Assembly (NCBI GenBank): GCA_963705505.1
Contig: CAVPJU010000008.1
Span: 64,001-128,000, forward strand
From: an uncultured bacterium
Lineage (GTDB): Bacteria; Desulfobacterota_D; UBA1144; Nemesobacterales; UBA2774
Length of the DNA: 64,000 nt
Reading direction: 5' to 3'
The notes under the pieces were generated by a model that was given only the letters and a program-made list of their open reading frames with translations, was not told the origin of the DNA and ran no database searches. Position 1 is the stretch's first letter, and the number at the start of each line of letters is the position of its first letter. Shown piece after piece: positions 5,038 through 42,025 of this stretch. A program made the translations under genes and the position numbers.

Positions 5038-5410
5038 CGTGCTCAAACAGGGTAGAAATCTATCTCTTGCTTTTTCCTTCCCCGACATTACAGAATTTGC
5101 GTTAAAAAAATAGATTGTTAACGCGTATAAAAATGTTTTACGGGACGATTCCGAGCAAGCAAGGAATCGGACGCCATTCGCTAAGTGCAATAATGTCATG
5201 AGTCTTGTTTCGCTAAGCCTTAATACTAATTGGGGTGGAATTAAAACATTTTAGCGTTAACATGAGATTTTTAGCAAATTCTGTATAGTCTTGATTTTTG
5301 CTTCTTTGTATCAAGACAAAGAAGAAAGAAAATTTGCCTTTGCTTTTCCTTTTGCCTTAGTATTCCCATGTCGCTTCTCACGAAGAGTTATCTGCAAATA
5401 TAATTTAGGT

Positions 5411-5590
5411 GCCCCCTCACCCTTCACCCTCTCCCCACTATGTGGGAGAGGGAAATTGATGTGCGGGCTCTTGCCTGACGTTGGTTCTGTGCATGACGGG
5501 AAGAAAAAGAAAAATCCACCCTAACCCTCCTTTACAAAGGAGGGAATTAAAAGATTAAAGACGAGATGCTGAAATAAATTCAGCATGACG
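5411..5590. repeat. Cluster of REP-like palindromes
   Basis: CCCTCTCCCC-ACTATGT-GGGAGAGGG; CCCTCCTTT-AC-AAAGGAGGG; ATGCTGAA-ATAAA-TTCAGCAT. Confidence 0.7.
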
Positions 5591-5730
5591 GTGAAAGATC
5601 CCTGCGAAGGTGCAAAGTCCGTCATTTCAATATGCCCTTCCAAACAATCAAACCCCAATTCCCCAGAACCTGATGTAAAATATAAGTCAGCCTCAATAAA
5701 AATTCCTTAAAGAGAGCGTGAAGGAAGCGA

Positions 5731-7965
5731 ATGAATTTCGAGCGAATGTTCCTGTCAACAACCGTCCTGATCCCCCTCGCTCTCGTCATAGTCGTCACCA
5801 TAGTCCTCACTTTCTTCCCGCTGGCAGGTGCGCTCGGCTTCGAGTTCTCAGCCGTTACGGGGTTCGTACTCTCGTTCATATCGGTATTCATATCGGCTGA
5901 GCTTATAGGAAGCGACAATAAACTCCACTCGGCAGGCAAAAGGATTTCCGACAGGGTATCGTCCATACTCCTCATTAACTTCGTGTTCCTGGGCGTCGTC
6001 TATCTTATCGGGCTCTTAAGCTCGCTCTTCAAAGGGGACTGCTTCATAAAGGAGGGAACGATTTTCTTCCTGCTCATTCCCGTCGTGAGCGTGTTCTTCT
6101 CCGCCTCCCTGGGACTCCTCGCCGGGTTCATCACGAAGAGACGGGGCTTCTTCGCGGGAGCGCTCATACTTATCGGGATATTCGTATATTCGCTGCTCAA
6201 GCTCTACAGAGACCCCTCGCTCTTTGTTTACAACCCGCTCTTCGGGTTCTTCCCCGGCCCTATATACGACGAGGCAATCCCGGTCACGCTCACGCTCGTG
6301 ACGTACAGGGGGATAACCGCCCTCTGGGGATTCCTTTTTCTGATACTCCTGACCCTGGCAAACGGTTTTAGCTACAGGCGGGTCGGAGCCTGGGATTTCG
6401 TAAAGCTCCTCACCGTGGGAATTTCCCTCTTCGTCGCGTATTCCCACGAGCACGAGATCGGAATAAGCTACAGCCGCGAGTACATAACCGGGGAAATACT
6501 CCCCGCGTCGGTGGAAACGGACCATTTCATCATTTACTACGACCCCGCGTCGCCCGAGGCAAAGCATATCGCGCTCATAGCCGGAGACCACGAATGGAGG
6601 TACGCCGAGCTCAGCAAATTCCTTAAGACCGACTCTCACGAAAAGATACGCTCCTACATCTATCCCGATGAGGAGACGCGGAAAAGAGTGGTCGGGGCGG
6701 GCGAGACGACGATCGCAAACCCGATTCACAAGGAGATACACCTCGTCTACGAAACCTTCCCCCAGCCGGTGCTCAAGCACGAGCTCACCCACGTAATGGC
6801 CGGGGACTTCGGGACGGAGATTCTCAGGATGAGCCCCAAGGTCGGCCTCCTCGAAGGGCTCGCAGTGGCCGCTGACTGGAGCGGGGACAGCTACAACCCT
6901 CACCAGTGGTCAAAGGCCATAATCAGGAACGGCATGGCGCCCGACATGGAAGAGATAACGGGTTTCGGGTTCTGGTACGCGCCCCCGGGTCTGAGCTATA
7001 CGCTCATGGGCTCCTTCTCCAGATACCTTATAGACACGTACGGGATCGAGAAATTCAAGACCGTTTACAGGACGGGCGATTTTTCCGTATACGGAAAGAG
7101 CCTCCCGGAGCTCGTCGCCGACTGGAAAAAGTTCCTCGAAGGCGTGGACACGCCCGAAGAGGCATTTGCGATAGCGAAAGCCAGGTTCGGCGCGCCCAGC
7201 ATTTTTACAGCCGCGTGCCCGAGGAGGGTAGCCGCGCTCAAGGCCGAAGGTTTTAAATACTACGCCGGCGACGATTACTGGAGGGCGCGCGAGTCGTTCA
7301 GCAAGGCGCTCCTCTATGACGGGAGCGACCCAGTGCTACTTAACGGGCTTGCGTACTCGAATTATTACCAAGGGGACTACGATAAGGCCGCCCGCGTAGC
7401 GGACTCCGGAGCACAGCTCTCCCAGGTTGACAGGGCGGCTCTCGAAAACCTGAAGGGGAACGCGCTCTGGCAGTCGGGCAATAAGGAGCAGGCGGAGAAT
7501 ATCTTCCGGTCCGTTCGAATGAATCCCCTGCCCCAGGACCTCAAGAGGGAGATCGACATAAAGGTCTCCGCGATCGGGGAAGGGGACGGAGCGGGCGAGA
7601 GCATACGCGAGTTCTTCTCCACGAGGGACAGGGCCATCCAGGCGGCCTCTCTCTCGGAGTCGATATTGAATTCCCCTGAGTACCCGCCGCCTTATTATCT
7701 GCTGGGCAGGCTGTTCTTCAACTCAGGCGAGTACGAAAGGGCGATACCTTATCTTTCCATGGCGGAATACCTCGGGCTTCCCTCGGACGAGATCACGGAC
7801 GAGAACCTCCGTATCCTCGGCATATCCCTCTTCGCCTCGGGAAGGTATGACGAAGCGGCGGGGATATTCACGCGTATCGCCTCCGGCGGCGACAGTGAAA
7901 AAAAGGAGTACGCCCTCGACTTCCTCGAAAGGATAGGGTGGGCCCGGACGAACCGTTTGAAGTAA
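5731..7965 (+). CDS. Membrane protein with gluzincin (peptidase MA-like) domain and TPR repeats
   Basis: About 7 N-terminal TM helices, HELTH...EGLA zinc motif, C-terminal TPR-like helices. Confidence 0.7.
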   Translation: MNFERMFLSTTVLIPLALVIVVTIVLTFFPLAGALGFEFSAVTGFVLSFISVFISAELIGSDNKLHSAGKRISDRVSSILLINFVFLGVVYLIGLLSSLFKGDCFIKEGTIFFLLIPVVSVFFSASLGLLAGFITKRRGFFAGALILIGIFVYSLLKLYRDPSLFVYNPLFGFFPGPIYDEAIPVTLTLVTYRGITALWGFLFLILLTLANGFSYRRVGAWDFVKLLTVGISLFVAYSHEHEIGISYSREYITGEILPASVETDHFIIYYDPASPEAKHIALIAGDHEWRYAELSKFLKTDSHEKIRSYIYPDEETRKRVVGAGETTIANPIHKEIHLVYETFPQPVLKHELTHVMAGDFGTEILRMSPKVGLLEGLAVAADWSGDSYNPHQWSKAIIRNGMAPDMEEITGFGFWYAPPGLSYTLMGSFSRYLIDTYGIEKFKTVYRTGDFSVYGKSLPELVADWKKFLEGVDTPEEAFAIAKARFGAPSIFTAACPRRVAALKAEGFKYYAGDDYWRARESFSKALLYDGSDPVLLNGLAYSNYYQGDYDKAARVADSGAQLSQVDRAALENLKGNALWQSGNKEQAENIFRSVRMNPLPQDLKREIDIKVSAIGEGDGAGESIREFFSTRDRAIQAASLSESILNSPEYPPPYYLLGRLFFNSGEYERAIPYLSMAEYLGLPSDEITDENLRILGISLFASGRYDEAAGIFTRIASGGDSEKKEYALDFLERIGWARTNRLK

Positions 7966-7998
7966 TCGTTTAATCCTATATAATCTTAGCTTCCGAAA

Positions 7999-8484
7999 AT
8001 GAAGAGATACAGAACCGCTGTCATCATTACCGCCCTGGTAGTCATAATCGACCAGATCTCCAAATGGCTCGTGGTCAGGTACGTGCCGCTTTACGGGAAG
8101 GTAAGCCTGCTGCCCTTCCTCGACGTCACCCATATCAGGAACCCCGGGGCAGCGTTCGGTATCTTCCGCGAGATGCCCGAATCCCTGAGGCTCCCGTTAT
8201 TCATTGCCGTCCTCATTACGGCGGTCATAGTCATAATCTACTTCCTCTCCAAGACAGGGACGGGCGACAGGCTCCTCGTCTTCTCGCTCTCTTTAATACT
8301 GGGCGGCGCGATAGGGAACTCGATAGACAGGTTCACGCTCCGGTACGTAACGGATTTCATCGACTTCCACTGGTTCGGGAACCCGGCTCTCCACTGGCCC
8401 CCTTTCAACCTCTCGGATTCCGCTATCACGATCGGTGTTATACTCATATTGCTCGACACTTTCATACTTAAACGGGGCAGGTAG
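7999..8484 (+). CDS. lspA: Lipoprotein signal peptidase II
   Basis: DQISK, NPGAAFG, GAIGNSIDR, VTDFI, FNLSD motifs. Confidence 0.95.
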   Translation: MKRYRTAVIITALVVIIDQISKWLVVRYVPLYGKVSLLPFLDVTHIRNPGAAFGIFREMPESLRLPLFIAVLITAVIVIIYFLSKTGTGDRLLVFSLSLILGGAIGNSIDRFTLRYVTDFIDFHWFGNPALHWPPFNLSDSAITIGVILILLDTFILKRGR

Positions 8485-32731: not shown

Positions 32732-33187
32732 ATGGCTTCCAAGAAAAAGTACCAGTCCCTATCACTTGGCGGTTATCTGTACAAGTTTCATGCAAAGGGC
32801 GAAGACACGGGGGGAGCTTACACATTTTTCGAAGCGTTTGTCCCGCCCAGGGACATAGGTCCGCCGCCGCACGTACACAGGAACGAGGACGTCGCATTCT
32901 ATATAATTGACGGCCTATTCACATTCTCACTCGACGGAGTTGAATTTAAAGCAAAAACGGGAGACTTCGTATTTCTGCCCAGGGGACTCACGCACTGGAA
33001 AAGGAATGAATCGGACTCTGTAGGAAAGATGGTCGTTATCTCGAACCCGTCGGGCTTCGAGAAGTATTTTGACAGAGCGGGGACCCTCGTGGAGGACGAT
33101 ACGGAAATGCCGCCGACGCCGACAAACGAGGAGCTCATAAGACTGGTACAGGAAGCCCCGAACTTCGGTATAGAGATGTTTCTCTGA
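32732..33187 (+). CDS. Cupin, quercetin 2,3-dioxygenase-like
   Basis: GEDTGGAY, GPPPHVH, GDFVFLPRGLTH, PSGFEKYF. Confidence 0.8.
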   Translation: MASKKKYQSLSLGGYLYKFHAKGEDTGGAYTFFEAFVPPRDIGPPPHVHRNEDVAFYIIDGLFTFSLDGVEFKAKTGDFVFLPRGLTHWKRNESDSVGKMVVISNPSGFEKYFDRAGTLVEDDTEMPPTPTNEELIRLVQEAPNFGIEMFL

Positions 33188-33251
33188 AGCCCGGGGCCCG
33201 AAATTCTAAAAGTGAATATATTTCAAGACCGATCTTTAGTGAGAGGGAGAA

Positions 33252-33713
33252 ATGCAAATGAATCCTATAAAGAAACATAAGTCAGTAGCTGTGGTCGGCA
33301 CAGTTTACAAATACCTCGCGACCGGAGAGGATACCGGAGGCGCATACGCGCTGTTTGAATCCCTTGTGCCCCCTAATGACCCAGGCCCGCCGCCCCATTT
33401 ACACCGGAACGAAGACGAAGGCTTCTACATCCTCGAAGGAGACTTCACGTTCTCATTGGGAGATAAGGAATACCACCTGAGGACGGGTGATTTCATTTTC
33501 CTCCCGCGCGGCATCAGGCACTCGTACAGGAACAATTCGGACACCGTGGCAAGGCAGCTGGTACTCGTCAACCCGTCAGGCTTCGAGAAATTCTTCGACG
33601 CCGTGGGCGAGCCGGTCGAGGACGATACAAAACTTCCTCCCCCTCCATCTAGTGAGCATATCCAGAAAATTATCGAGGAAGCCCCTAAATTCGGAATCGA
33701 GCTATTCCTCTGA
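33252..33713 (+). CDS. Cupin, quercetin 2,3-dioxygenase-like (tandem paralog)
   Basis: GEDTGGAY, GPPPHLHRNEDE, GDFIFLPRGIRH. Confidence 0.85.
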   Translation: MQMNPIKKHKSVAVVGTVYKYLATGEDTGGAYALFESLVPPNDPGPPPHLHRNEDEGFYILEGDFTFSLGDKEYHLRTGDFIFLPRGIRHSYRNNSDTVARQLVLVNPSGFEKFFDAVGEPVEDDTKLPPPPSSEHIQKIIEEAPKFGIELFL

Positions 33714-33748
33714 GAATCAAAGTCTCCCCGCTTTTACAGATGTTTCCC

Positions 33749-33789
33749 GGAAAAAGAAAACCTGCCGTCTTTAGCAGTAAGACGGCAGG
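33749..33789 (-). terminator. Intrinsic terminator of the porin transcript (possibly bidirectional)
   Basis: CCTGCCGTCTT / AAGACGGCAGG stem with T-tract on minus strand. Confidence 0.75.
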
Positions 33790-33828
33790 CTTATTAAAGG
33801 AGGGATGAGAGACTAGTTGTATCCTTAA

Positions 33829-35244
33829 CTAAAAATTAGCCTGGAGCTGTGCTCTCACTACATTCGCATCCACATCGGGAGCGTCCTGGGTAGCCTCGTT
33901 CCTCTGGAACGTATAATTCAGCTGGACCTTCCATCTGTGGTCATGCGAAATGTAGTAGTTTAATGCCGGTGTAAGCTCCCATTGCTTGCTGGGTAAGCTC
34001 GTATCCGGGGGGACGACTCCAGAGCTCGTATCGAAGTCTATCAATGCGTACCTCGCCGCCAGCTCTACCGTCTTCGGCAGCAGGAACACGCCCGCCTGTA
34101 CCCTGAACCCCTGGTCGTATGCCGTGCTCTGGCCGGTATCGGGATTGAGCCACCTGCCTTCGTATTCCGCCTCGACGTTGAAGTACTTCATTTTGAAGTT
34201 TATGTCACCCGTAATCTGCGTGAAGTCCGTCGTCTGGAACCCAAGCTGGCTGATCCTCGGGCAAACTCCGCCGTTCGGTACATCCCTGTCGCAGTTAAGC
34301 CCCGGTATTGTAGCCGCTGCAAAACCGACTGCGAATGTGGGGTTTTTAGCAAAGTTGGGAACTATGTCGTATGCTTTCGCGGTGGCAAAAGCTCCGTTCG
34401 CGTTGAACTTATAATCATCGTCTCCCGCCAGGCCCAACTGAACCCTGCCGACGTAGAGCAAGTTCGAGTCAAGGTTTGTAACGCCTTTTGAGCTGTTGTT
34501 CCCCTGCGCATTAAACACACCGGCGCTATACGAAAAGTTGTTCTTCGCCCCGATGCCGCCCATCAATGCCGCGCCCCGCGTCCTCTCAAGAGAAAATTGA
34601 TTGTTGACTATGGACCTTTCGATTATCTGCAGCGACGCCGTAGAAGTGAGCTCTTCCCTGTTGAAAGGGACCTTCCACTGTCCCACCCTGGGACCGATCT
34701 CCTTCTGATAGGCCGCGGTCAGATAAGCGTCCTTGAGGAGAGTACTGCTGGCCGGGTCTATCATTAACATATAATAGAACCAGGGCGCGAAAGCATACCC
34801 GTCCCACCTCAACTCGAATCTCCGAATGTTAAAATTGGTCTGCGTAAGCTTCTTGTCCGTATCATTCACAAAGAGCTGGATTTGAGCTAAGCTGCTGAAT
34901 CTCGTCTTAAACTTAAAACCTTTGTCGTCAGACGTCTCGAAAACAAAACCCTTATCATACTTAGCTAAAAACTTGTTATACCAGGCGTCTTTGTCCTGCT
35001 CCTTCCCCGCCGCAATCAGCTCGGCTGTCTTCTGCTGATCGGATGCCCTATCGGCCTGAAGATTGTCGATCTGCTGCTTCAACTCTTGTATCTGCTTCTG
35101 GTTCTGGAGCTGTATAATCTCGATCTGCTTCTTCAGCTCCTCTATCTGCTGCTTCGTCGACTGAGCATGCGAGCTCAAGGGGCAAAGCAGTATCAGGAAA
35201 AAGATAACCAGAGCCTCCTTGTTGCTTATAAACTTACTTATCAT
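33829..35244 (-). CDS. OprO/OprP-family anion-selective porin
   Basis: Signal peptide, N-terminal coiled coil, FNIRR, LKDAY, GQWKVPFNREELTS, C-terminal Phe. Confidence 0.8.
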   Translation of the reverse strand: MISKFISNKEALVIFFLILLCPLSSHAQSTKQQIEELKKQIEIIQLQNQKQIQELKQQIDNLQADRASDQQKTAELIAAGKEQDKDAWYNKFLAKYDKGFVFETSDDKGFKFKTRFSSLAQIQLFVNDTDKKLTQTNFNIRRFELRWDGYAFAPWFYYMLMIDPASSTLLKDAYLTAAYQKEIGPRVGQWKVPFNREELTSTASLQIIERSIVNNQFSLERTRGAALMGGIGAKNNFSYSAGVFNAQGNNSSKGVTNLDSNLLYVGRVQLGLAGDDDYKFNANGAFATAKAYDIVPNFAKNPTFAVGFAAATIPGLNCDRDVPNGGVCPRISQLGFQTTDFTQITGDINFKMKYFNVEAEYEGRWLNPDTGQSTAYDQGFRVQAGVFLLPKTVELAARYALIDFDTSSGVVPPDTSLPSKQWELTPALNYYISHDHRWKVQLNYTFQRNEATQDAPDVDANVVRAQLQANF

Positions 35245-35286
35245 CTTACTGATCCTCCTGTAATAGTTTTTTTTACCGCCGGTCGG

Positions 35287-35949
35287 TCATTTCAGATACG
35301 ACCCGCCTGCAGACTTTAAATCCGGTCGTCTGTACCTCGAATACCTGACACTCCTTTCATTCCTTAATCGATCCGTTATGGGCACGCCGAGCGCCAATGA
35401 CAGACCCCGCCTCAGGGGCTCCAGTTTCTCCCTGAATGCTCTGAGACCCTTCACATAAGCAGCCGGATTGTTTTGCCATAACTTGAAGTTGTCGAATACG
35501 CGTTTTAGCTTTTCCTTCGCTTCGGGCGAATCAAATCTCCAGTTAAAGTCCCCTTCGATCGGATAAAAGGTTTGAAAGAACAAAAGCTGCTTTATGACGC
35601 TCCGATGATCCTCGACATAATAAAGGTCAAAGAAGCCCGTCCGCGCCCAGCTGTACCCGCTGCCGAAGCTCTCGGCAAAATTGTCTTCCAGTCCTAAATT
35701 CTTCCCGGCGATTTTCGCGAGGTTCACATACACATAAGCCGCCTCCGGAGTGAAATATCCGTGCTCCGGAAATCCCTCGTCCAGCCGGTTGAGGCTGTTT
35801 ACCAGATAGAGCCCGCTATAATTTTTCGCGAACCTTGTGCCGGGTATCGCCCCGAAGTCCAATTCTCCGATGTCCCCGATTTCATTAAGCGAGGTACTGA
35901 TGTTCTCCCATTCCCGTTTTGCTATCCTGATAGTTTCTTCCGATTTCAT
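35287..35949 (-). CDS. Hypothetical protein
   Basis: 220-aa ORF, GGAG RBS, same strand as flanking transporter genes. Confidence 0.65.
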   Translation of the reverse strand: MKSEETIRIAKREWENISTSLNEIGDIGELDFGAIPGTRFAKNYSGLYLVNSLNRLDEGFPEHGYFTPEAAYVYVNLAKIAGKNLGLEDNFAESFGSGYSWARTGFFDLYYVEDHRSVIKQLLFFQTFYPIEGDFNWRFDSPEAKEKLKRVFDNFKLWQNNPAAYVKGLRAFREKLEPLRRGLSLALGVPITDRLRNERSVRYSRYRRPDLKSAGGSYLK

Positions 35950-36113
35950 TTTCTTCTCCGTGTAAATTTCCTTTTGCTTTTTTGCGCAGAACTCCCCCGT
36001 AAAGTTGTATTTATGAAAACCAACTTTTTAAGATTCGCGGAAATTCCCGCAACTCTCCCGTGCGCCCGTACACAAGCGTCAGACGACAGGATTCTCCGAT
36101 TGTCTGTCAGGAA

Positions 36114-36206
36114 TTAATTACAGTCAGGACAACAGTAGTACGTACCTCTCAGCTTAATGCGGTGATTAAGGGTTATGAGATTATTGAGAGATGGGTGCTT
36201 AAGCAT
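36114..36206 (-). CDS. 30-aa Cys-rich peptide MLKHPSLNNLITLNHRIKLRGTYYCCPDCN (putative leader/attenuator peptide)
   Basis: ATG overlaps the permease stop (ATGCTTAA); three TGT codons at the 3' end; followed by alternative hairpins. Confidence 0.5.
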   Translation of the reverse strand: MLKHPSLNNLITLNHRIKLRGTYYCCPDCN

Positions 36207-36960
36207 TGAGGAGCCCCCATCTTTCTCTTACCCGGTTCTCGAGCTTCGTGAACACGAACCTGTCGACCGTTATGCCTATTACGATGATGATTATCATAAC
36301 GGCCATCACCTGGCTTATGTCGTTGAGCTCCCTCCCCATTGTAAGGAGGTGTCCGAGCCCGATGCTTACATACAACAGCTCTCCCGCCATGAGAGCGCGC
36401 CACGCGAAAGACCAGCCCTGTTTGAGCCCGCTTATAATGGAGGGCATAGCCGCCGGAATTATCACCCTCGTATATAGGTTGAACCCTCCCGCCCCCATAG
36501 TCCTCGCGGCCCTGAGATATATGGGCGGAACATTCTTGACGCCGGAATCGACGCCGATTGTGATAGCGAAGAGCGAGCCCAGCACCACCACCATGACTAT
36601 AGCGTTTTCGCTCAGCCCGAACCAGAGGAGCGCTATAGGCAGCCAGCATATGCTCGGGAGCGCCTGGAACCCGAGAACGATCGTGCCTATCGTCTCGTCG
36701 AGCAGCTTCACCCTCCCGATTGCGAGACCGATGAGGACGCCGCCCACTATGGACAGCCCGAAACCTATCAGCACCCTCTTCATGCTGACCAGGATGCCGA
36801 TCGTGAAGCTGTTATCCTCGAATCCCGCAATCAGCGACTGCGCCACGCCCAGAGGAGAAGGGAACAGGTACGGGGGCCAGATGCGGAGTTCCGCAACACC
36901 CTGCCATATACCGATGAGGAGGACATAAAAAACGGTCAGTTTAATTATTTTCCCTTTCAT
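36199..36960 (-). CDS. ABC transporter permease, SsuC/TauC/NitT family
   Basis: LFPSP, QALPSICWLP..LWFG, RAARTMGA EAA-like loop. Confidence 0.92.
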   Translation of the reverse strand: MKGKIIKLTVFYVLLIGIWQGVAELRIWPPYLFPSPLGVAQSLIAGFEDNSFTIGILVSMKRVLIGFGLSIVGGVLIGLAIGRVKLLDETIGTIVLGFQALPSICWLPIALLWFGLSENAIVMVVVLGSLFAITIGVDSGVKNVPPIYLRAARTMGAGGFNLYTRVIIPAAMPSIISGLKQGWSFAWRALMAGELLYVSIGLGHLLTMGRELNDISQVMAVMIIIIVIGITVDRFVFTKLENRVRERWGLLNA

Positions 36961-38015
36961 CAGCTGGCCGCCTCTCTTATTTCTCCTGCAGCATCCTCAC
37001 CGTCGTCCCTTATCTCGTCCGTGATCCACTTGGTGTTGAGGAACACTTCCGGATTGCCGGGCTTCCTCGGCCTGTCGATTTCTATATCGTGCTCCGATTT
37101 AATCTTCCCGGGGTTCTTCGTGAAGACGAGCACCCTGTCCCCGAGGATTACGGCTTCCTCGACATTGTGCGTAACGAAAATAATGGTCTTATGGGACTCT
37201 ACCCATATCCTCTGAAGCTCGTCCTGAAGAGACTCTCTCGTCTGGATGTCGAGTGCGGCAAAAGGCTCGTCCATCAGCAGAATGGAAGGCTCCATGACGA
37301 GCGCCCTCGCAAGCGCGACCCGCTGTTTCATACCTCCCGAGAGTTGGTGGATATACGATTTATGGAACTTCTCGTCGAGCCCGACGAGCTTCAGATAATC
37401 GTATGCGAGCTCTCGTCTTATTTTTTGGGCAACCCTTCTCAATTTAAGCCCGAACTCCACGTTCTCGGTCACGGTCAGCCACGGAAAGAGGGCGCCCTCC
37501 TGGAAAACTACCACTCTATCGGAGCCGGGTCCCTCCACGCGCTTCCCGTCAGCGAGTATACGGCCGCTCGAAGGTTTATCGAGCCCCGCGATCAGGTTAA
37601 GCAGCGTGGACTTCCCGCACCCGGAAGACCCCACTATCGAGACGAATTCCCCGTCCCGTATCGTGAGGTTTATATCGCTCAGAGCGGAAACTTTACCTTC
37701 CTTCGTATTGAATGCTTTCGATACGTTTTCCACCCTGAGCCTCGCCTCTTTCTTCTCTACCTTCTGAATGAAAATATTCCAGAGCCCTTCCTGCTCCACG
37801 ACCCGGTAGGGATACCCCCTCCTCTCGCAGAACCTGGGTGCGTTCTCGAGCGCCGTCGCCTCGTGGTCCGATATCGCGAGAAGCACCGCGTCGTCGTCGA
37901 GCGCCCTGATCGTATCCCTTATTACGTTCAGGGGATGAGGGCATATCGCATCCCTCAAATCCAACACCCTGTCGGGCTTCAGTACTTCTAATTTCTTCAC
38001 CTGTTCCAAATGCAT
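36960..38015 (-). CDS. ABC ATP-binding protein (SsuB/TauB family) with N-terminal TusA/SirA-like domain
   Basis: VLDLRDAICPHP...WNIFIQK then GSSGCGKST, LSGGMKQR, LLMDEPF, FVTH. Confidence 0.88.
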   Translation of the reverse strand: MHLEQVKKLEVLKPDRVLDLRDAICPHPLNVIRDTIRALDDDAVLLAISDHEATALENAPRFCERRGYPYRVVEQEGLWNIFIQKVEKKEARLRVENVSKAFNTKEGKVSALSDINLTIRDGEFVSIVGSSGCGKSTLLNLIAGLDKPSSGRILADGKRVEGPGSDRVVVFQEGALFPWLTVTENVEFGLKLRRVAQKIRRELAYDYLKLVGLDEKFHKSYIHQLSGGMKQRVALARALVMEPSILLMDEPFAALDIQTRESLQDELQRIWVESHKTIIFVTHNVEEAVILGDRVLVFTKNPGKIKSEHDIEIDRPRKPGNPEVFLNTKWITDEIRDDGEDAAGEIREAAS

Positions 38016-38038
38016 CTGGTTTCCTTTTAGTCAGACGT

Positions 38039-39097
38039 TTATTTTTCCGCAGACTGCCGGTCGTTGATTTTTATCTCTTTGAGGCCTTTTTCCTTCAGTA
38101 TACCGTTCAAAATGGAGAGGTCATAAATATTCGAGAGGTCCGGCTCTTTCTTGCCGAGGAAACCAAGCTTGTAGGCGTCCTGTGCGGATTGGAAAAGGGA
38201 GCTCGCGATCGGGTCGTACGTAAACTGTATCCTAGGCAGGGCCGCGTCCAGAATGTTCTGGGGCAATGCTTTCCCGGTCTCCCTCTTGATCTCCTGATTA
38301 AGCACCACCTTCGCCTCATCGGGGTTTTTATTTATCCAGTCGGTTATCTGAAGATTGGTTTCAAGCCATGTCTTTACAAGGTCGGGATGCTCTTTCAGAA
38401 ACTTGGTGCTGACGATAATATGAGTGGTTACATATTGACCGTTCGGCCAGAGTTCTTTCTCGTCGAGGAAAAGCTCCCCGCCGCCGTCGGATATCAACCT
38501 CGAAACCCACGGTTCGACTGTCCATGCACCGTCTATCTCCTTTTTAATAAATAGAGTCAGCTGGTCCGGGTTTTCGAGCGGTATGACCTCGACGGTCCCC
38601 CCTTTCTCCTTAAGCTGATAACCGTTCTCGCCAAGCCAGTTCCTGAGAGCAACGTCCTGTGTGTTTCCTATGCTTGGTGTAGCGATCTTCTTCCCGTTAA
38701 AGTCCTTAGCCGACGTTATACCGGCATCCTTTCTCACGACGAGCCCCGCACCCCCGCTGGCAGCGCCTGATACAATTCTCAAAGCCTCACCGTCTGATTT
38801 TATGTACCCGTTGACGGCAGGGTTTGGTCCGATGTACGTAATATCGAGCTCCCCTGCAAAAAGTGCTTCGATAGCAGAGGTTCCTGAATTGAAGAGCTTC
38901 CAGTCTATATAAGCTTTATCCCCGAGCGCCTTCTCGAAATCTCCCCTCGCCTGCCCTATAACCCCCTGGGCATGGGTTACGTTCGGGAAATGACCCGCGC
39001 GTATCCTTACTTTATTATCCTGTGCTCCAAAACTCACAGCCGAGCCTATCAAGCCCAGCGCAAGTCCCGCAGCTAAAATCAATGACTTTAATTTCAT
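38039..39097 (-). CDS. ABC substrate-binding protein, SsuA/NitT family
   Basis: AAGGAGG RBS, signal peptide, GHFPNVTHA, YIGPNPA, GNTQDVALR, VEPW. Confidence 0.9.
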   Translation of the reverse strand: MKLKSLILAAGLALGLIGSAVSFGAQDNKVRIRAGHFPNVTHAQGVIGQARGDFEKALGDKAYIDWKLFNSGTSAIEALFAGELDITYIGPNPAVNGYIKSDGEALRIVSGAASGGAGLVVRKDAGITSAKDFNGKKIATPSIGNTQDVALRNWLGENGYQLKEKGGTVEVIPLENPDQLTLFIKKEIDGAWTVEPWVSRLISDGGGELFLDEKELWPNGQYVTTHIIVSTKFLKEHPDLVKTWLETNLQITDWINKNPDEAKVVLNQEIKRETGKALPQNILDAALPRIQFTYDPIASSLFQSAQDAYKLGFLGKKEPDLSNIYDLSILNGILKEKGLKEIKINDRQSAEK

Positions 39098-39134
39098 TAC
39101 GTTTTCCTCCTTAATTATCTTGGTGGAAATATAT

Positions 39135-39150
39135 TGCAAGCCCCGTGCCA
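39135..39150 (-). promoter_or_regulatory. Sigma-54 (-24/-12) promoter TGGCACGGGGCTTGCA
   Basis: Exact match to TGGCACG-N4-TTGC(A/T), about 40 nt upstream of the binding-protein start. Confidence 0.8.
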
Positions 39151-39253
39151 TAATCAAAATTCCCTTTATTTTAGAGCAATTCAGCCCGATTTAGGGTTCA
39201 AACGGTTACTTAATAATCATCCTGCGGTTACATACTGCACAGATGAATAATGC

Positions 39254-40390
39254 TTATGAGCCGATTATCTCAGTGATCGTGCGGGGATATCCGTGTGGCT
39301 CTGCCTTCAATCGTCCAAGTACTTCCCGACTCTCCGAGACAAGCATCCGCACAAGCTCCTCCGCCGTGCATCTCCTCGACATCGGGGAGCCCTGCCCCGC
39401 CCAGAGGGACATGAATTGAGGATCCCCCTTCGCCCTCGATGCGGTCCTGATGGGCCTCGTGAGATAATTCTGAATCGGATATGCAGGGACCTTATCCTCG
39501 AGCTTAACCATCTCATCGAAAAACCGGTTCTTTATACCCCGCGCGTACTTCCCCGTGTACACCCTCGTCAATACCGTGCTCGTATCCTCAGAATTCAGGA
39601 GCGCGTCGAGCCACGGCGCGGATACGGCAGCTTCCGTGCAGCTCAGGAACGCGGTGCCCATCTGTACGGCCGACGCGCCGAGCGCGAGAGCGGCTAAGAT
39701 ACCGCGTCCGTCCATTATCCCTCCCGAGCATATTACTGGCACGCCGACCTTGTCGGCTAACTGGGGAACGAGCGATATTCCGCCTATCATCGGCGCACCT
39801 CCCGTCGATGCGAACGTCCCCCTGTGCGCCCCCGCTTCGCTCCCCTGCGCAATGACTGGCGGTGCATCCTGCTTCTTCGAGCATCACTCCTTCGCCGACG
39901 CATGTGGCCGTGCCTATGACGGCAGCCTTCTTTCTCAGAAGCTCCTTTATGTGCTTACGCTTCGGGATTCCGAATGTGAAGCTGAATACAGGGACGTTGT
40001 TATCGAGAACTAGCTCCGAGCTGTTCCTCGAAGGAGAAGTCGGGCTCTTCTTCGGCTCCGGGTAAGTTGTGCTCCGACCTCCCCCGCGATCTCAGCGAGC
40101 TTCTTCATCACTCTCGCGGAGGTTTTCCTGCGCCTTATTTTCTCGGGCGCGAACAGGTTAACGGCAAAAGGTTTGTTCGTGAGCGTGCGTATCTTACGTA
40201 TCGCGGAATCTATCTCGCCGGGCGAAAGGTATCCTCCTGGGAACGAGCCCAATCCGCCCGCGTTAGAGACGGCGGCGACTAATTCAGGCGTCGTCGGCCC
40301 GCCCGCCATGGGCGCCTGAATTATCGGGTGCTCTATACCCAGCATATCGCGAAGTTTTTTTGTTTGCTCCGGCCAGAAATCCGAATTCAT
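39254..40390 (-). pseudogene. Nitronate monooxygenase family protein with several frameshifts
   Basis: PIIQAPMAGG...AVSNAGGLGS; QGSEAGAHRGTF; GGIMDGRG...AVQMGTAF...SLWAGQ spread over different frames. Confidence 0.8.
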
Positions 40391-40557
40391 AGTATCCCCC
40401 TAATAGAACGGCCAAAGATGATTGGCTTAGTTTACATGATAGAGATAAGGGATTGGTTTTACAATCGAAATACAGTCAGATTATTCCCAATAGCTATAAT
40501 TCAAAGCCACACAAATTATCTATTCTATAAATATTAAATCTATGTTAGAGTTATTAA

Positions 40558-41124
40558 ATGTATGCTAGATTTAAAAAAACCAGAAATGCGAATAATGATA
40601 TTCACTATGAATTTATTGAGCAAATATCTTTATTTGGTTGTAACAATGGGTTCATCCCACGGCTTCTACAATTAAAAACATCCCCCGGTCAAAATGAACC
40701 ATATTATTGGCATCTTAATATTGAGACAGAACTCATGAAAACTACAGAATATTCTAATTCAACATTCGTTATCGATTTAAAACCGAAACAAAATAAAACA
40801 AATCTTTCTCTTTATGAAGTCTTAGATGTTTGGGGACAATCAGATACAGGCTGGACACCTATATTATTGCATTTGTCTGGATTGTTTGTGGATGAAGACC
40901 CTAATTCTATAAACCGTAATTACTTCACCAGGAATGAAAGTCAAATTGACGGCCCAATATATGAAGTACTCTATCTTGATGGTTCAGTTGTGAACGGAAA
41001 ACTAATTGGCAAATGGACAGCACCGCCAGCAAGTCCCACCAACGCTACGCTTCTTTGGCCGAGTACGTTACAATATTTCGTGAGATGTATAAAGGAATGC
41101 TCACCCGGGGTGTTGAATTTTTGA
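40558..41124 (+). CDS. Low-GC hypothetical protein
   Basis: 188-aa ORF in a markedly AT-rich segment. Confidence 0.6.
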   Translation: MYARFKKTRNANNDIHYEFIEQISLFGCNNGFIPRLLQLKTSPGQNEPYYWHLNIETELMKTTEYSNSTFVIDLKPKQNKTNLSLYEVLDVWGQSDTGWTPILLHLSGLFVDEDPNSINRNYFTRNESQIDGPIYEVLYLDGSVVNGKLIGKWTAPPASPTNATLLWPSTLQYFVRCIKECSPGVLNF

Positions 41125-41158
41125 AAAGAACGAATGCCTTACCTTCACTATTTGCCGA

Positions 41159-41335
41159 CTATTTCCTGTACGCGTCCCGCCCTCTGTGTTCGAGCGGCGG
41201 AATGATATCGAAGAGCCTTATTTCAGGAGTGTAGAACGACATTATAGCGTCGACGTCTCCTCTCCGCATCGCCTCTCTCCAATTATCGATAAGGCTCCTA
41301 ATCTCCGTTTCTTGATTTGCTTTCTTTGTGCTCAT
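41159..41335 (-). pseudogene. Truncated YybH/SnoaL (NTF2-like) gene, 58 aa
   Basis: AAGGAG RBS; EIRSLIDNWREAMRRGDVDAIMSFY...FDIIPPLEHRGRDAYRK then stop. Confidence 0.65.
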
Positions 41336-41365
41336 AATTATTCTCCTTTATGTTTGTTTACAGAT

Positions 41366-41396
41366 ATACGACGAATGAGCGGGTGATTTCAGGACA
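41366..41396 (-). promoter_or_regulatory. Putative ECF promoter TGTCC-N16-TTCGTCGTAT
   Basis: Identical boxes and spacing at 42723-42753. Confidence 0.55.
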
Positions 41397-41575
41397 AACA
41401 CTTTGAATTTTTTTCATCCCCCGGACCTTCCCTTACTAATTATACGCGGTTCGATGTCCCGGAACTACCTAAAATTCAGGGTGGGTTCAAGATTCTAATC
41501 TGTAACACCCGTCTACTGAGCGGCGAATCGTTTCCACGCGATTGAGCCGCAATTCACGTTCGGCGAAGGTCGCGG

Positions 41576-42025
41576 TCAACCGGGTTTCGCGGCTGAGTTT
41601 TTCCCACATCTGCTCAGCAGCCAGGCATCCAGGCTGTACGCCATCGGGCCCGCAAGAAGTATGATGATCGAGCTCACCATCATGCTGAAGGGATATGAAG
41701 CGCCAGTTAGGAAGCCATTTGGAAGTGTGACGAGTGTCGCGACGAGCATATTGATCATTATGGCGAAAGCCGCCGGACGGGTGAGGAGACCGACGATCAG
41801 CAGAAACCCGCCTATGAACTCGGTATAGCAGCTCAGGTAAGCGAGGATCGGGTGAATGCCCATCTTCGAGACGAAGATATCTATGGTGGCTTCGATTCCC
41901 ATGCCGCCGAACCATCCAAACACCTTCCCGGCGCCAGCCAGGAAGAGGATGATACCAACAGTCAACCGCAGCAAAAGAAGCGAGACATCAAGTAGTCTGG
42001 TATTCGTTGCGGTTAATAGCTTCAT
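41576..42025 (-). CDS. DoxX family membrane protein
   Basis: LLLRLTVG, EFIGGFLLIVGLLTRPAA, GPMAYSLD. Confidence 0.88.
   Translation of the reverse strand: MKLLTATNTRLLDVSLLLLRLTVGIILFLAGAGKVFGWFGGMGIEATIDIFVSKMGIHPILAYLSCYTEFIGGFLLIVGLLTRPAAFAIMINMLVATLVTLPNGFLTGASYPFSMMVSSIIILLAGPMAYSLDAWLLSRCGKNSAAKPG

Follow-up and report, generated by a model that had tools for sequence, protein, structure and literature searches.

The 64,000-nucleotide window analysed here (positions 64,001 to 128,000 of contig CAVPJU010000008.1, assembly GCA_963705505.1, from an uncultured bacterium of the order Nemesobacterales) encodes on its minus strand an importer ATPase that carries a TusA-family sulfur-carrier domain at its N terminus. 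The TusA-ABC ATPase fusion gene (36960..38015; ABC, ATP-binding cassette) specifies a protein of 351 amino acids (aa) and is a genuine, conserved single gene, not the product of an indel; its architecture is rare. It lies in an operon with the order SsuA-family binding protein, fused ATPase, permease, a 220-aa protein and an anion-type porin. A TusA domain on an importer ATPase is apparently an undescribed design: no description of such a protein was found in the literature searched on TusA fusions, PF01206 and YeeE/YeeD, a scope that lay outside subscription reviews of TusA, and the initial annotation of this DNA had likewise not known the architecture as characterised. The design is a variant of two known kinds, the TusA-family partners of sulfur importers and the accessory domains on importer ATPases, and it suggests a transporter that has the handling or sensing of sulfur built in. 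It marks an unassigned subfamily of NitT/TauT-type importers of soil and sediment bacteria.

Anatomy of the fused protein

The open reading frame (ORF) of the fusion begins with ATG, with AAGGA 7 nt upstream, and contains the peptides quoted in the initial annotation, which had described a TusA-like N terminus running in frame into a complete ATPase; Pfam assigns both TusA and ABC_tran to it. The TusA-family domain (37761..37967, residues 17-85) matches PF01206 with an E value of 4e-12 and 46.2 bits, well over the gathering score of 28.6, so that the profile match proposed earlier is borne out, and it scored 49.4 bits at the same place in a genome-wide family search. When the N-terminal 86 residues were compared with PDB chains by phmmer, residues 13-78 aligned to E. 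coli TusA/YhhP (1dcj, 3lvj; E 6e-6), the cysteine of the CPHP motif (Cys25, codon 37941-37943) falling on the CPEP cysteine of E. coli TusA and Cys63, further on in the domain, falling on the second TusA cysteine; the CPxP cysteine named in the initial annotation is supported. Ta1170, YedF and the YeeD portion of the YeeE-YeeD crystal construct (E 0.046) gave weaker sequence matches in the PDB. Since none of the NCBIfam equivalog cut-offs is reached (TusA, 33.5 against 78; YedF, 24.5 against 79 and 23.7 against 110), the domain is placed in a separate branch of the family; the YeeD model of NCBIfam gave no match to it at E up to 1.

The TusA fold is a two-layer alpha/beta arrangement with the order strand-helix-strand-helix-strand-strand. 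In an AlphaFold2 model of the fusion built with 31 sequences (mean pLDDT 83.7, pTM 0.77), the predicted secondary structure of the TusA-like part is E16-19, H28-37, E44-49, H52-66, E70-75 and E78-84, a TusA-like pattern at the level of predicted secondary structure. Two helices and four strands are given for the TusA-type fold in PMC11073785. A linker of about 7 residues (37740..37760, residues 86-92, VEKKEAR) lies between strand E78-84 of the TusA part and strand E93-104 of the nucleotide-binding domain in the model; in the alignment, its length is constant in the main clade and 2-7 residues greater in two distant clades.

The remainder of the protein is an ABC nucleotide-binding domain of the NitT/TauT type (36963..37739), in which ABC_tran (PF00005) covers residues 112-253 with 121.8 bits. 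It has Walker A, Q-loop, the LSGGMKQR signature, Walker B, D-loop and H-loop, each of them invariant in the alignment, which argues for a working motor. The closest solved chains are CmpD/NrtD (E 1e-63; Foldseek TM 0.86-0.91 on the target, 41-43% identity), and the NCBIfam scores are all under the respective cut-offs (SaoA, 263.7 against 360; NtrCD, 242.9 against 291.8; TauB, 237.6 against 357; SsuB, 192.3 against 395). Conservation of the TusA part is centred on Cys25, which is invariant in 31 of 31 aligned fused proteins at identities down to 46% and is kept in three further fused copies from another phylum; D50, P60, W79 and I83 are invariant beside it in the 31-protein alignment, H51 and C63 nearly so. 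The motif itself varies in distant clades to CPYP, CSCP and CACP.

Occurrence and evolution of the fusion

PF01206 and PF00005 occur together in 51 of the 120 best-scoring clusters at 90% identity; these 51 are 46-93% identical to the protein of the window, and some of them carry the source names Dadabacteria, Thermodesulfobacteriota, Deltaproteobacteria, Actinomycetota/Actinobacteria and Nitrospiria. Whole-genome searches within the same order found the full-length fusion in 11 of 41 genomes, its own genome counted; one of these is cut by contig ends, and one genome has three copies. In the other phylum, which holds a Nitrospirae-titled record, the fusion is carried by 3 of 401 genomes that were drawn evenly. 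In the genome with three copies (G009; contigs C2, C14 and C13), one copy has an in-frame TAG, and, as contamination is estimated at 7%, the copies may come from more than one strain. Of 71,356 representatives with E up to 1e-30, the best 150 include three to five proteins that cover the TusA part: three with one stretch starting at profile position 30 or before (P0050, P0150, P0161) and two more, of about 350 aa, with two stretches. A search with region 1-95 returned 15 proteins from 80 candidates, all fused to ABC_tran, and is too insensitive to serve as a census.

Continuity across the domain junction (37739-37763) is also seen in assembled contigs of the Logan collection. One contig of run X1 (691 nt, 37167-37857) and one of run X4 (270 nt, 37696-37965) span the junction with 0 gaps; the runs come from different studies, and X1, the better holder of the gene, may be the source sample. 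No insertions or deletions are listed in Logan contigs between 37470 and 38029, and no RNA run holding the gene is listed among the 24 runs. The initial annotation had named a stop after IQK, in reads or homologues, as the sign of two merged genes; there is none in the homologues or contigs, and its call for a check across the junction is answered by the two gap-free contigs. An assembly or gene-calling artefact that joined a small tusA gene to an ATPase gene might still be suspected from P0040, P0043 and P0044, which, among the 120 relatives, sit inside the fused clade and have no TusA domain. However, these proteins are probably cut, as they are only 243-284 aa long and two of them lie on contigs of 1060 and 1252 nt, and the 51 fused clusters, the two phyla and the junction-spanning contigs of two studies leave the artefact with a negligible probability and refute it for practical purposes.

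The link between TusA and the transporter appears specific to the fused proteins, judging by two scans. No TusA-like ORF was found at a distance of up to 8 kb from any of 79 unfused NitT/TauT loci, which came from many phyla, in a scan of genome contigs with the full alignment that was swamped by ordinary ATPases, returned none that was fused and included no search aimed at split, shorter forms. Conversely, a scan of metagenome contigs with the N-domains of the CSCP/CACP clade yielded 80 loci with 84 TusA-like ORFs, all free-standing and none fused; these free genes, the ones most similar to the fused domains, had no ATPase of this type next to them, and an ABC ATPase of any kind (29-36% identical) was present at only 3 of the loci.

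Three groups can be told apart among the fused proteins, namely the main clade, the CSCP/CACP clade and a CPHP/CPYP clade that includes the other phylum. Each of the three is monophyletic in the TusA-domain tree, where they lie close together. In the ATPase trees, fused and unfused proteins are interleaved within one transporter subfamily, the deep branches being weak; 4-6 label changes are needed on the ABC tree, of which the starred branches force 1, and an approximately unbiased (AU) test, which left out P0040, P0043, P0044 and 25 near-duplicate rows of the main clade, gave p 0.335 and did not reject one clade holding every fused row. These trees would fit either a single old fusion that was later lost in places or a few separate fusions.

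Possible functions of the TusA domain

Carriage of sulfur on the CPxP cysteine is the sole chemistry known for proteins of the TusA family. Because of this chemistry and of the precedent of YeeD and YeeE, the explanation ranked first, though held tentatively and with somewhat less than even confidence, is that the TusA domain, tethered to the importer, accepts sulfur from a sulfane-sulfur anion that is brought in. In that precedent, the TusA-family protein YeeD is needed for thiosulfate uptake through YeeE and its CPxP cysteine reacts with thiosulfate (PMC11073785), in agreement with the earlier statement that TsuB acts with the TsuA thiosulfate transporter. Applied to the fused ATPase, the importer would take up an anionic compound with sulfane sulfur, for example an organic thiosulfonate or thiosulfate. 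On the cytoplasmic side, Cys25 of the domain would then capture the sulfur, forming either a persulfide or a thiosulfonate adduct. The captured sulfur would be handed on to sulfur assimilation, as YeeD (TsuB) serves YeeE (TsuA), the fusion would provide each transporter with two acceptor cysteines at its exit, and uptake would be coupled to immediate consumption of the substrate. A plain sulfonate is a less probable substrate than a sulfur anion that is reduced or of mixed valence.

Several observations are in keeping with such an acceptor: the recurrence of the fusion, the invariance of Cys25, the intact motor, the SsuA-type binding protein and the anion-selective-type porin. A further one comes from locus L196 of the other phylum (5088-8469, minus strand), where a rhodanese, an Rrf2 regulator, a binding protein, a plain ATPase and a permease (5088-5846) follow one another, the ATPase being 54%, the binding protein 49% and the permease 56% identical to those of this operon. 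The single-domain rhodanese, directly upstream there together with the Rrf2 regulator, is a second kind of sulfur transferase adjoining the same transporter subfamily, and the rhodanese neighbour and the family chemistry lean towards the acceptor. Overall, the evidence for either sulfur acceptance or persulfide gating is circumstantial, consisting of a Cys25 that is invariant over three deep clades, a binding protein of the SsuA family and one rhodanese-bearing relative.

A number of points weigh against an acceptor role. SsuA/TauA-type proteins typically bind sulfonates, the oxidised sulfur of which is not transferable to a cysteine without a desulfonating enzyme, and no such enzyme was found within the operon, nor does an SsuD, SsuE or TauD gene adjoin it. 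The rhodanese is a neighbour at one locus only; among the 19 other unfused loci of that phylum, BLAST at E up to 1e-6 found no relative of it, and a TusA-like ORF is present at 1. The 79 unfused loci described above gave no TusA-like ORF. No partner enzyme is common to the two phyla whose gene contexts were read, and the linker that would have to let Cys25 reach the permease exit is only about 7 residues long. Transport itself does not require the domain, as shown by the interleaving of fused with unfused ATPases in one subfamily.

A further such point concerns the permease (36199..36960), a BPD_transp_1 protein whose start overlaps the ATPase stop (ATGA) and whose best NCBIfam model is SaoP, with 136.3 bits against a cut-off of 295. 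It has a cysteine, Cys105 (codon 36646-36648), in the sequence LPSICWLP, which aligns with NrtB Ala133 next to the gate of the third transmembrane helix (TM3), by Pro131 and the gate residue Leu132 that line the nitrate cavity, and which takes the place of an otherwise conserved alanine. All 10 permeases from fused operons of the same order have the cysteine; of 59 permeases beside unfused ATPases, none has Cys at this position and 49 have Ala. A role as a YeeE-style relay partner of the fusion was considered and rejected, the residue being Ala in the 3 fused operons of the other phylum and Cys in the unfused operon L196. Cys105 is a clade trait of the transporter subfamily and not a correlate of the fusion, and so it, too, counts against the acceptor. 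At another gate position, that of NrtB Leu216, this permease has Arg188 and the other phylum His.

The main competitor, possible but ranked second and given a somewhat lower probability than the acceptor, is a regulatory domain that would sense the level of sulfane sulfur, a persulfide or disulfide on Cys25 altering closure of the two ATPase domains and thereby shutting or opening import, as a feedback control on a sulfur importer. Extra domains on importer ATPases are usually allosteric regulators, and NrtC and CmpC, among the nearest solved relatives, carry a domain that controls transport (PMC10945777, PMC13287603). The short fixed linker also speaks for control, as it suggests rigid docking on the ATPase, and the alternation of forms with and without the domain in one subfamily, where the binding proteins are similar, would be expected of an accessory control module. 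The interleaving and the want of a conserved downstream sulfur acceptor lean towards regulation. However, regulatory domains of the known kind lie at the C terminus and have small molecules as ligands, whereas this domain is N-terminal; we know of no TusA-family protein that acts as a sensor; and the invariance of Cys25 fits acceptance and regulation alike. A docking or chaperone role without chemistry on substrate sulfur, in which the domain would bring some partner, perhaps a cysteine desulfurase, to the membrane or would be a structural remnant, is unlikely. TusA proteins do bind partners via the cysteine face (PMC11073785), and no partner is fixed in the neighbourhood, but the TusA signature residues C25, D50, H51, P60, C63 and W79 are conserved over three clades, which argues that an activity has been kept.

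Uptake of selenium or of another chalcogen oxyanion, with a YedF-like selenium handler on an importer for selenite-like anions, appears improbable, more so than docking. It draws on the YedF models, which are the second and third NCBIfam matches of the domain (24.5 and 23.7 bits), on a weak match of the porin to ExtI, a porin of a selenite/tellurite operon (28.7 bits), on a gene of the selenium-binding-protein-56 family 500 nt downstream in locus L022, and on the best NCBIfam models of the transporter, which are those of the SAO system, whose permease has a selenocysteine. Against it, none of these scores comes near its curated cut-off (79, 110, 150, 295-360), no selD over the cut-off was found in this 93.6% complete genome (best 80.8 against 125), and the selenocysteine of SaoP occupies another gate position than Cys105.

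To return to the tethered acceptor, its more far-reaching form would come near to group translocation, the sulfur of a thiosulfate- or thiosulfonate-type substrate passing covalently onto a carrier cysteine of the ATPase subunit so that ATP-driven uptake and the first step of assimilation would be one machine; this is possible and given about the same probability as the regulatory domain.

Operon and genomic context

The trio of binding protein, fused ATPase and permease is intact at every one of the 9 related loci from the same order. The periplasmic substrate-binding protein (38039..39157, minus strand, as for the other genes of the operon) has a signal peptide and an NMT1_2 domain; its likely start is Met21 (39097), judged by relatives of 350-354 aa. 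It scores 192.7 bits with TIGR01728 (SsuA_fam), over the cut-off of 163.5, which suggests a pocket for an -SO3 head group, and its nearest solved chain is TauA (6ssy, E 1.7e-15). Downstream of the permease, a conserved 220-aa protein (35287..35949) is cytoplasmic, lineage-specific and without a signal peptide, and is known from 21 clusters only, none with a Pfam domain; it contains the motifs GYFTPEAAYV and GSGYSWVRTG and gave no Pfam or NCBIfam match and no sequence match in the PDB (best E 0.66). The model of this protein is all-helical (pLDDT 69.6), with a best Foldseek E of 0.22 and a best VIA-align Z of 5.4, which is within the noise for helical proteins, and a complex prediction with the fused ATPase scored 0.00, a value that calls interaction neither way. 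The gene is kept in 6 of the 9 related loci, in one at 41% identity, and the porin that follows it, an outer-membrane protein of the phosphate-selective OprO/P type (33829..35244; Porin_O_P, 65.2 bits), in 7 of the 9. Behind the porin gene, a terminator-like hairpin of 14 pairs (33758..33792, minus strand), detected by match to a consensus only, is the likely end of the transcription unit. Rfam gave no match in 33000-42000. Porin genes of the OprO/P-like kind also occur directly by unfused NitT/TauT operons in the other phylum (L205, L210, L211 and others), in weak BLAST matches of 23-26% identity.

In the other phylum, the three fused loci (L193, L194, L195) are mutually syntenic, with the order QueC, GTP cyclohydrolase I, FolB, MsrA, binding protein (in one of the three), fused ATPase, permease, EVE, DUF1499 and MutS; the binding-protein gene is not adjacent in the other two. 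The contexts of these loci and of the window have only the transporter genes in common, and hence no enzyme partner is conserved across the phyla. The MsrA gene (methionine sulfoxide reductase) lies directly upstream of the fused ATPase in all three, or of the binding-protein gene where that is present.

Other genes flank the operon. A nitronate monooxygenase (NMO) gene adjoining it (39254-40390, minus strand) is broken by at least three frame changes: compared with an intact relative of 364 aa, residues 1-108 lie in the first frame, about 109-125 in the second and 126-185 in the third, after which the first frame resumes. The gene is intact and adjacent in L015 and L016 and present in L023. 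Two tandem cupin genes (32732-33713, plus strand) lie by the porin gene and hold the same position in L015, L016 and L023. In L022 (3744-6145, plus strand), the operon is followed by a 132-aa ORF, the gene of the selenium-binding-protein-56 family, to which methanethiol oxidases belong, and an OsmC-like gene.

Elsewhere in the genome there are one sulfite reductase-type gene, one PAPS (3'-phosphoadenosine 5'-phosphosulfate) reductase-type gene, four rhodanese matches and 15 luciferase-like monooxygenase genes, none of the last within the operon. A Sulf_transp (YeeE-like) gene at C1:6507-7297 has no TusA gene adjoining it, and no gene of the DsrE family was found in the genome. The only other TusA gene (L001:1477-3067, plus strand, on contig C6 of genome G000) overlaps a PALP (cysteine-synthase-like) gene, which is followed by a JAB-domain gene. 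This free TusA-PALP-JAB set is a possible sink for carrier-bound sulfur, and by analogy it recalls carrier-protein-dependent cysteine synthesis.

Comparison with known systems

Known regulatory domains on importer ATPases such as MalK, MetN and ModC have ligand-binding folds and are C-terminal. The fused domain departs from this type, to which NrtC also belongs, by its N-terminal position and its TusA fold. NrtABCD and CmpABCD (PDB 8wm7, 8wm8, 9u9z; PMC10945777) are of the same transporter family as the importer described here, and one of their ATPase subunits has a fused domain that controls transport; however, the extra domain of NrtC and CmpC is described there as C-terminal, with a binding-protein fold, and as binding an anion or PII, whereas the one here is N-terminal, with a TusA fold and a reactive cysteine. 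SsuABC and TauABC share the operon order of binding protein, ATPase and permease, and the binding protein here is of the SsuA family with TauA as nearest solved chain, but the ATPase, permease and binding protein are all under the equivalog cut-offs of SsuB, SsuC and TauA-C, and SsuB and TauB have no TusA domain. The SAO system (SaoA/SaoP/SaoX) provides the best NCBIfam models for this ATPase and permease and is likewise of the NitT/TauT type with a chalcogen residue at the permease gate, a selenocysteine in SaoP (bioRxiv 10.1101/2022.07.06.499078). SaoA lacks an extra domain, however, and the Sec/Cys of SaoP aligns to MetI Met163, a gate position that differs from the one of Cys105.

Among carriers, E. 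coli TusA, which serves tRNA thiolation and the molybdenum cofactor, and the DsrE-TusA relays of sulfur oxidisers share the fold family, the CPxP motif and the second cysteine, but they are free proteins of 80 aa, unlike the fused domain. The closest likeness in arrangement is to YeeE/YeeD (TsuA/TsuB), where a CPxP TusA-family domain is also tied to a sulfur-compound importer on the cytoplasmic side and where the fusion to a transporter subunit is natural, YeeE-YeeD single proteins occurring in some bacteria (PMC11073785). There, the membrane partner is the YeeE channel, which has its own cysteine relay and no ATPase; here, the domain belongs to a binding-protein-dependent ABC importer and sits on the ATPase instead of the membrane subunit, which is a BPD_transp_1 protein and not a Sulf_transp protein like YeeE. 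The passage of sulfur from a transporter into protein-bound relays is known for this one channel type only, and a carrier domain on an ABC motor would be a second, genetically compact case, in which hand-off or persulfide feedback on transport is testable with one protein and a single mutated cysteine. If the form resembling group translocation were true, no earlier binding-protein-dependent ABC importer would be known to have a carrier domain of its own that processes the substrate, and the principle of YeeE-YeeD would be extended to primary active transport.

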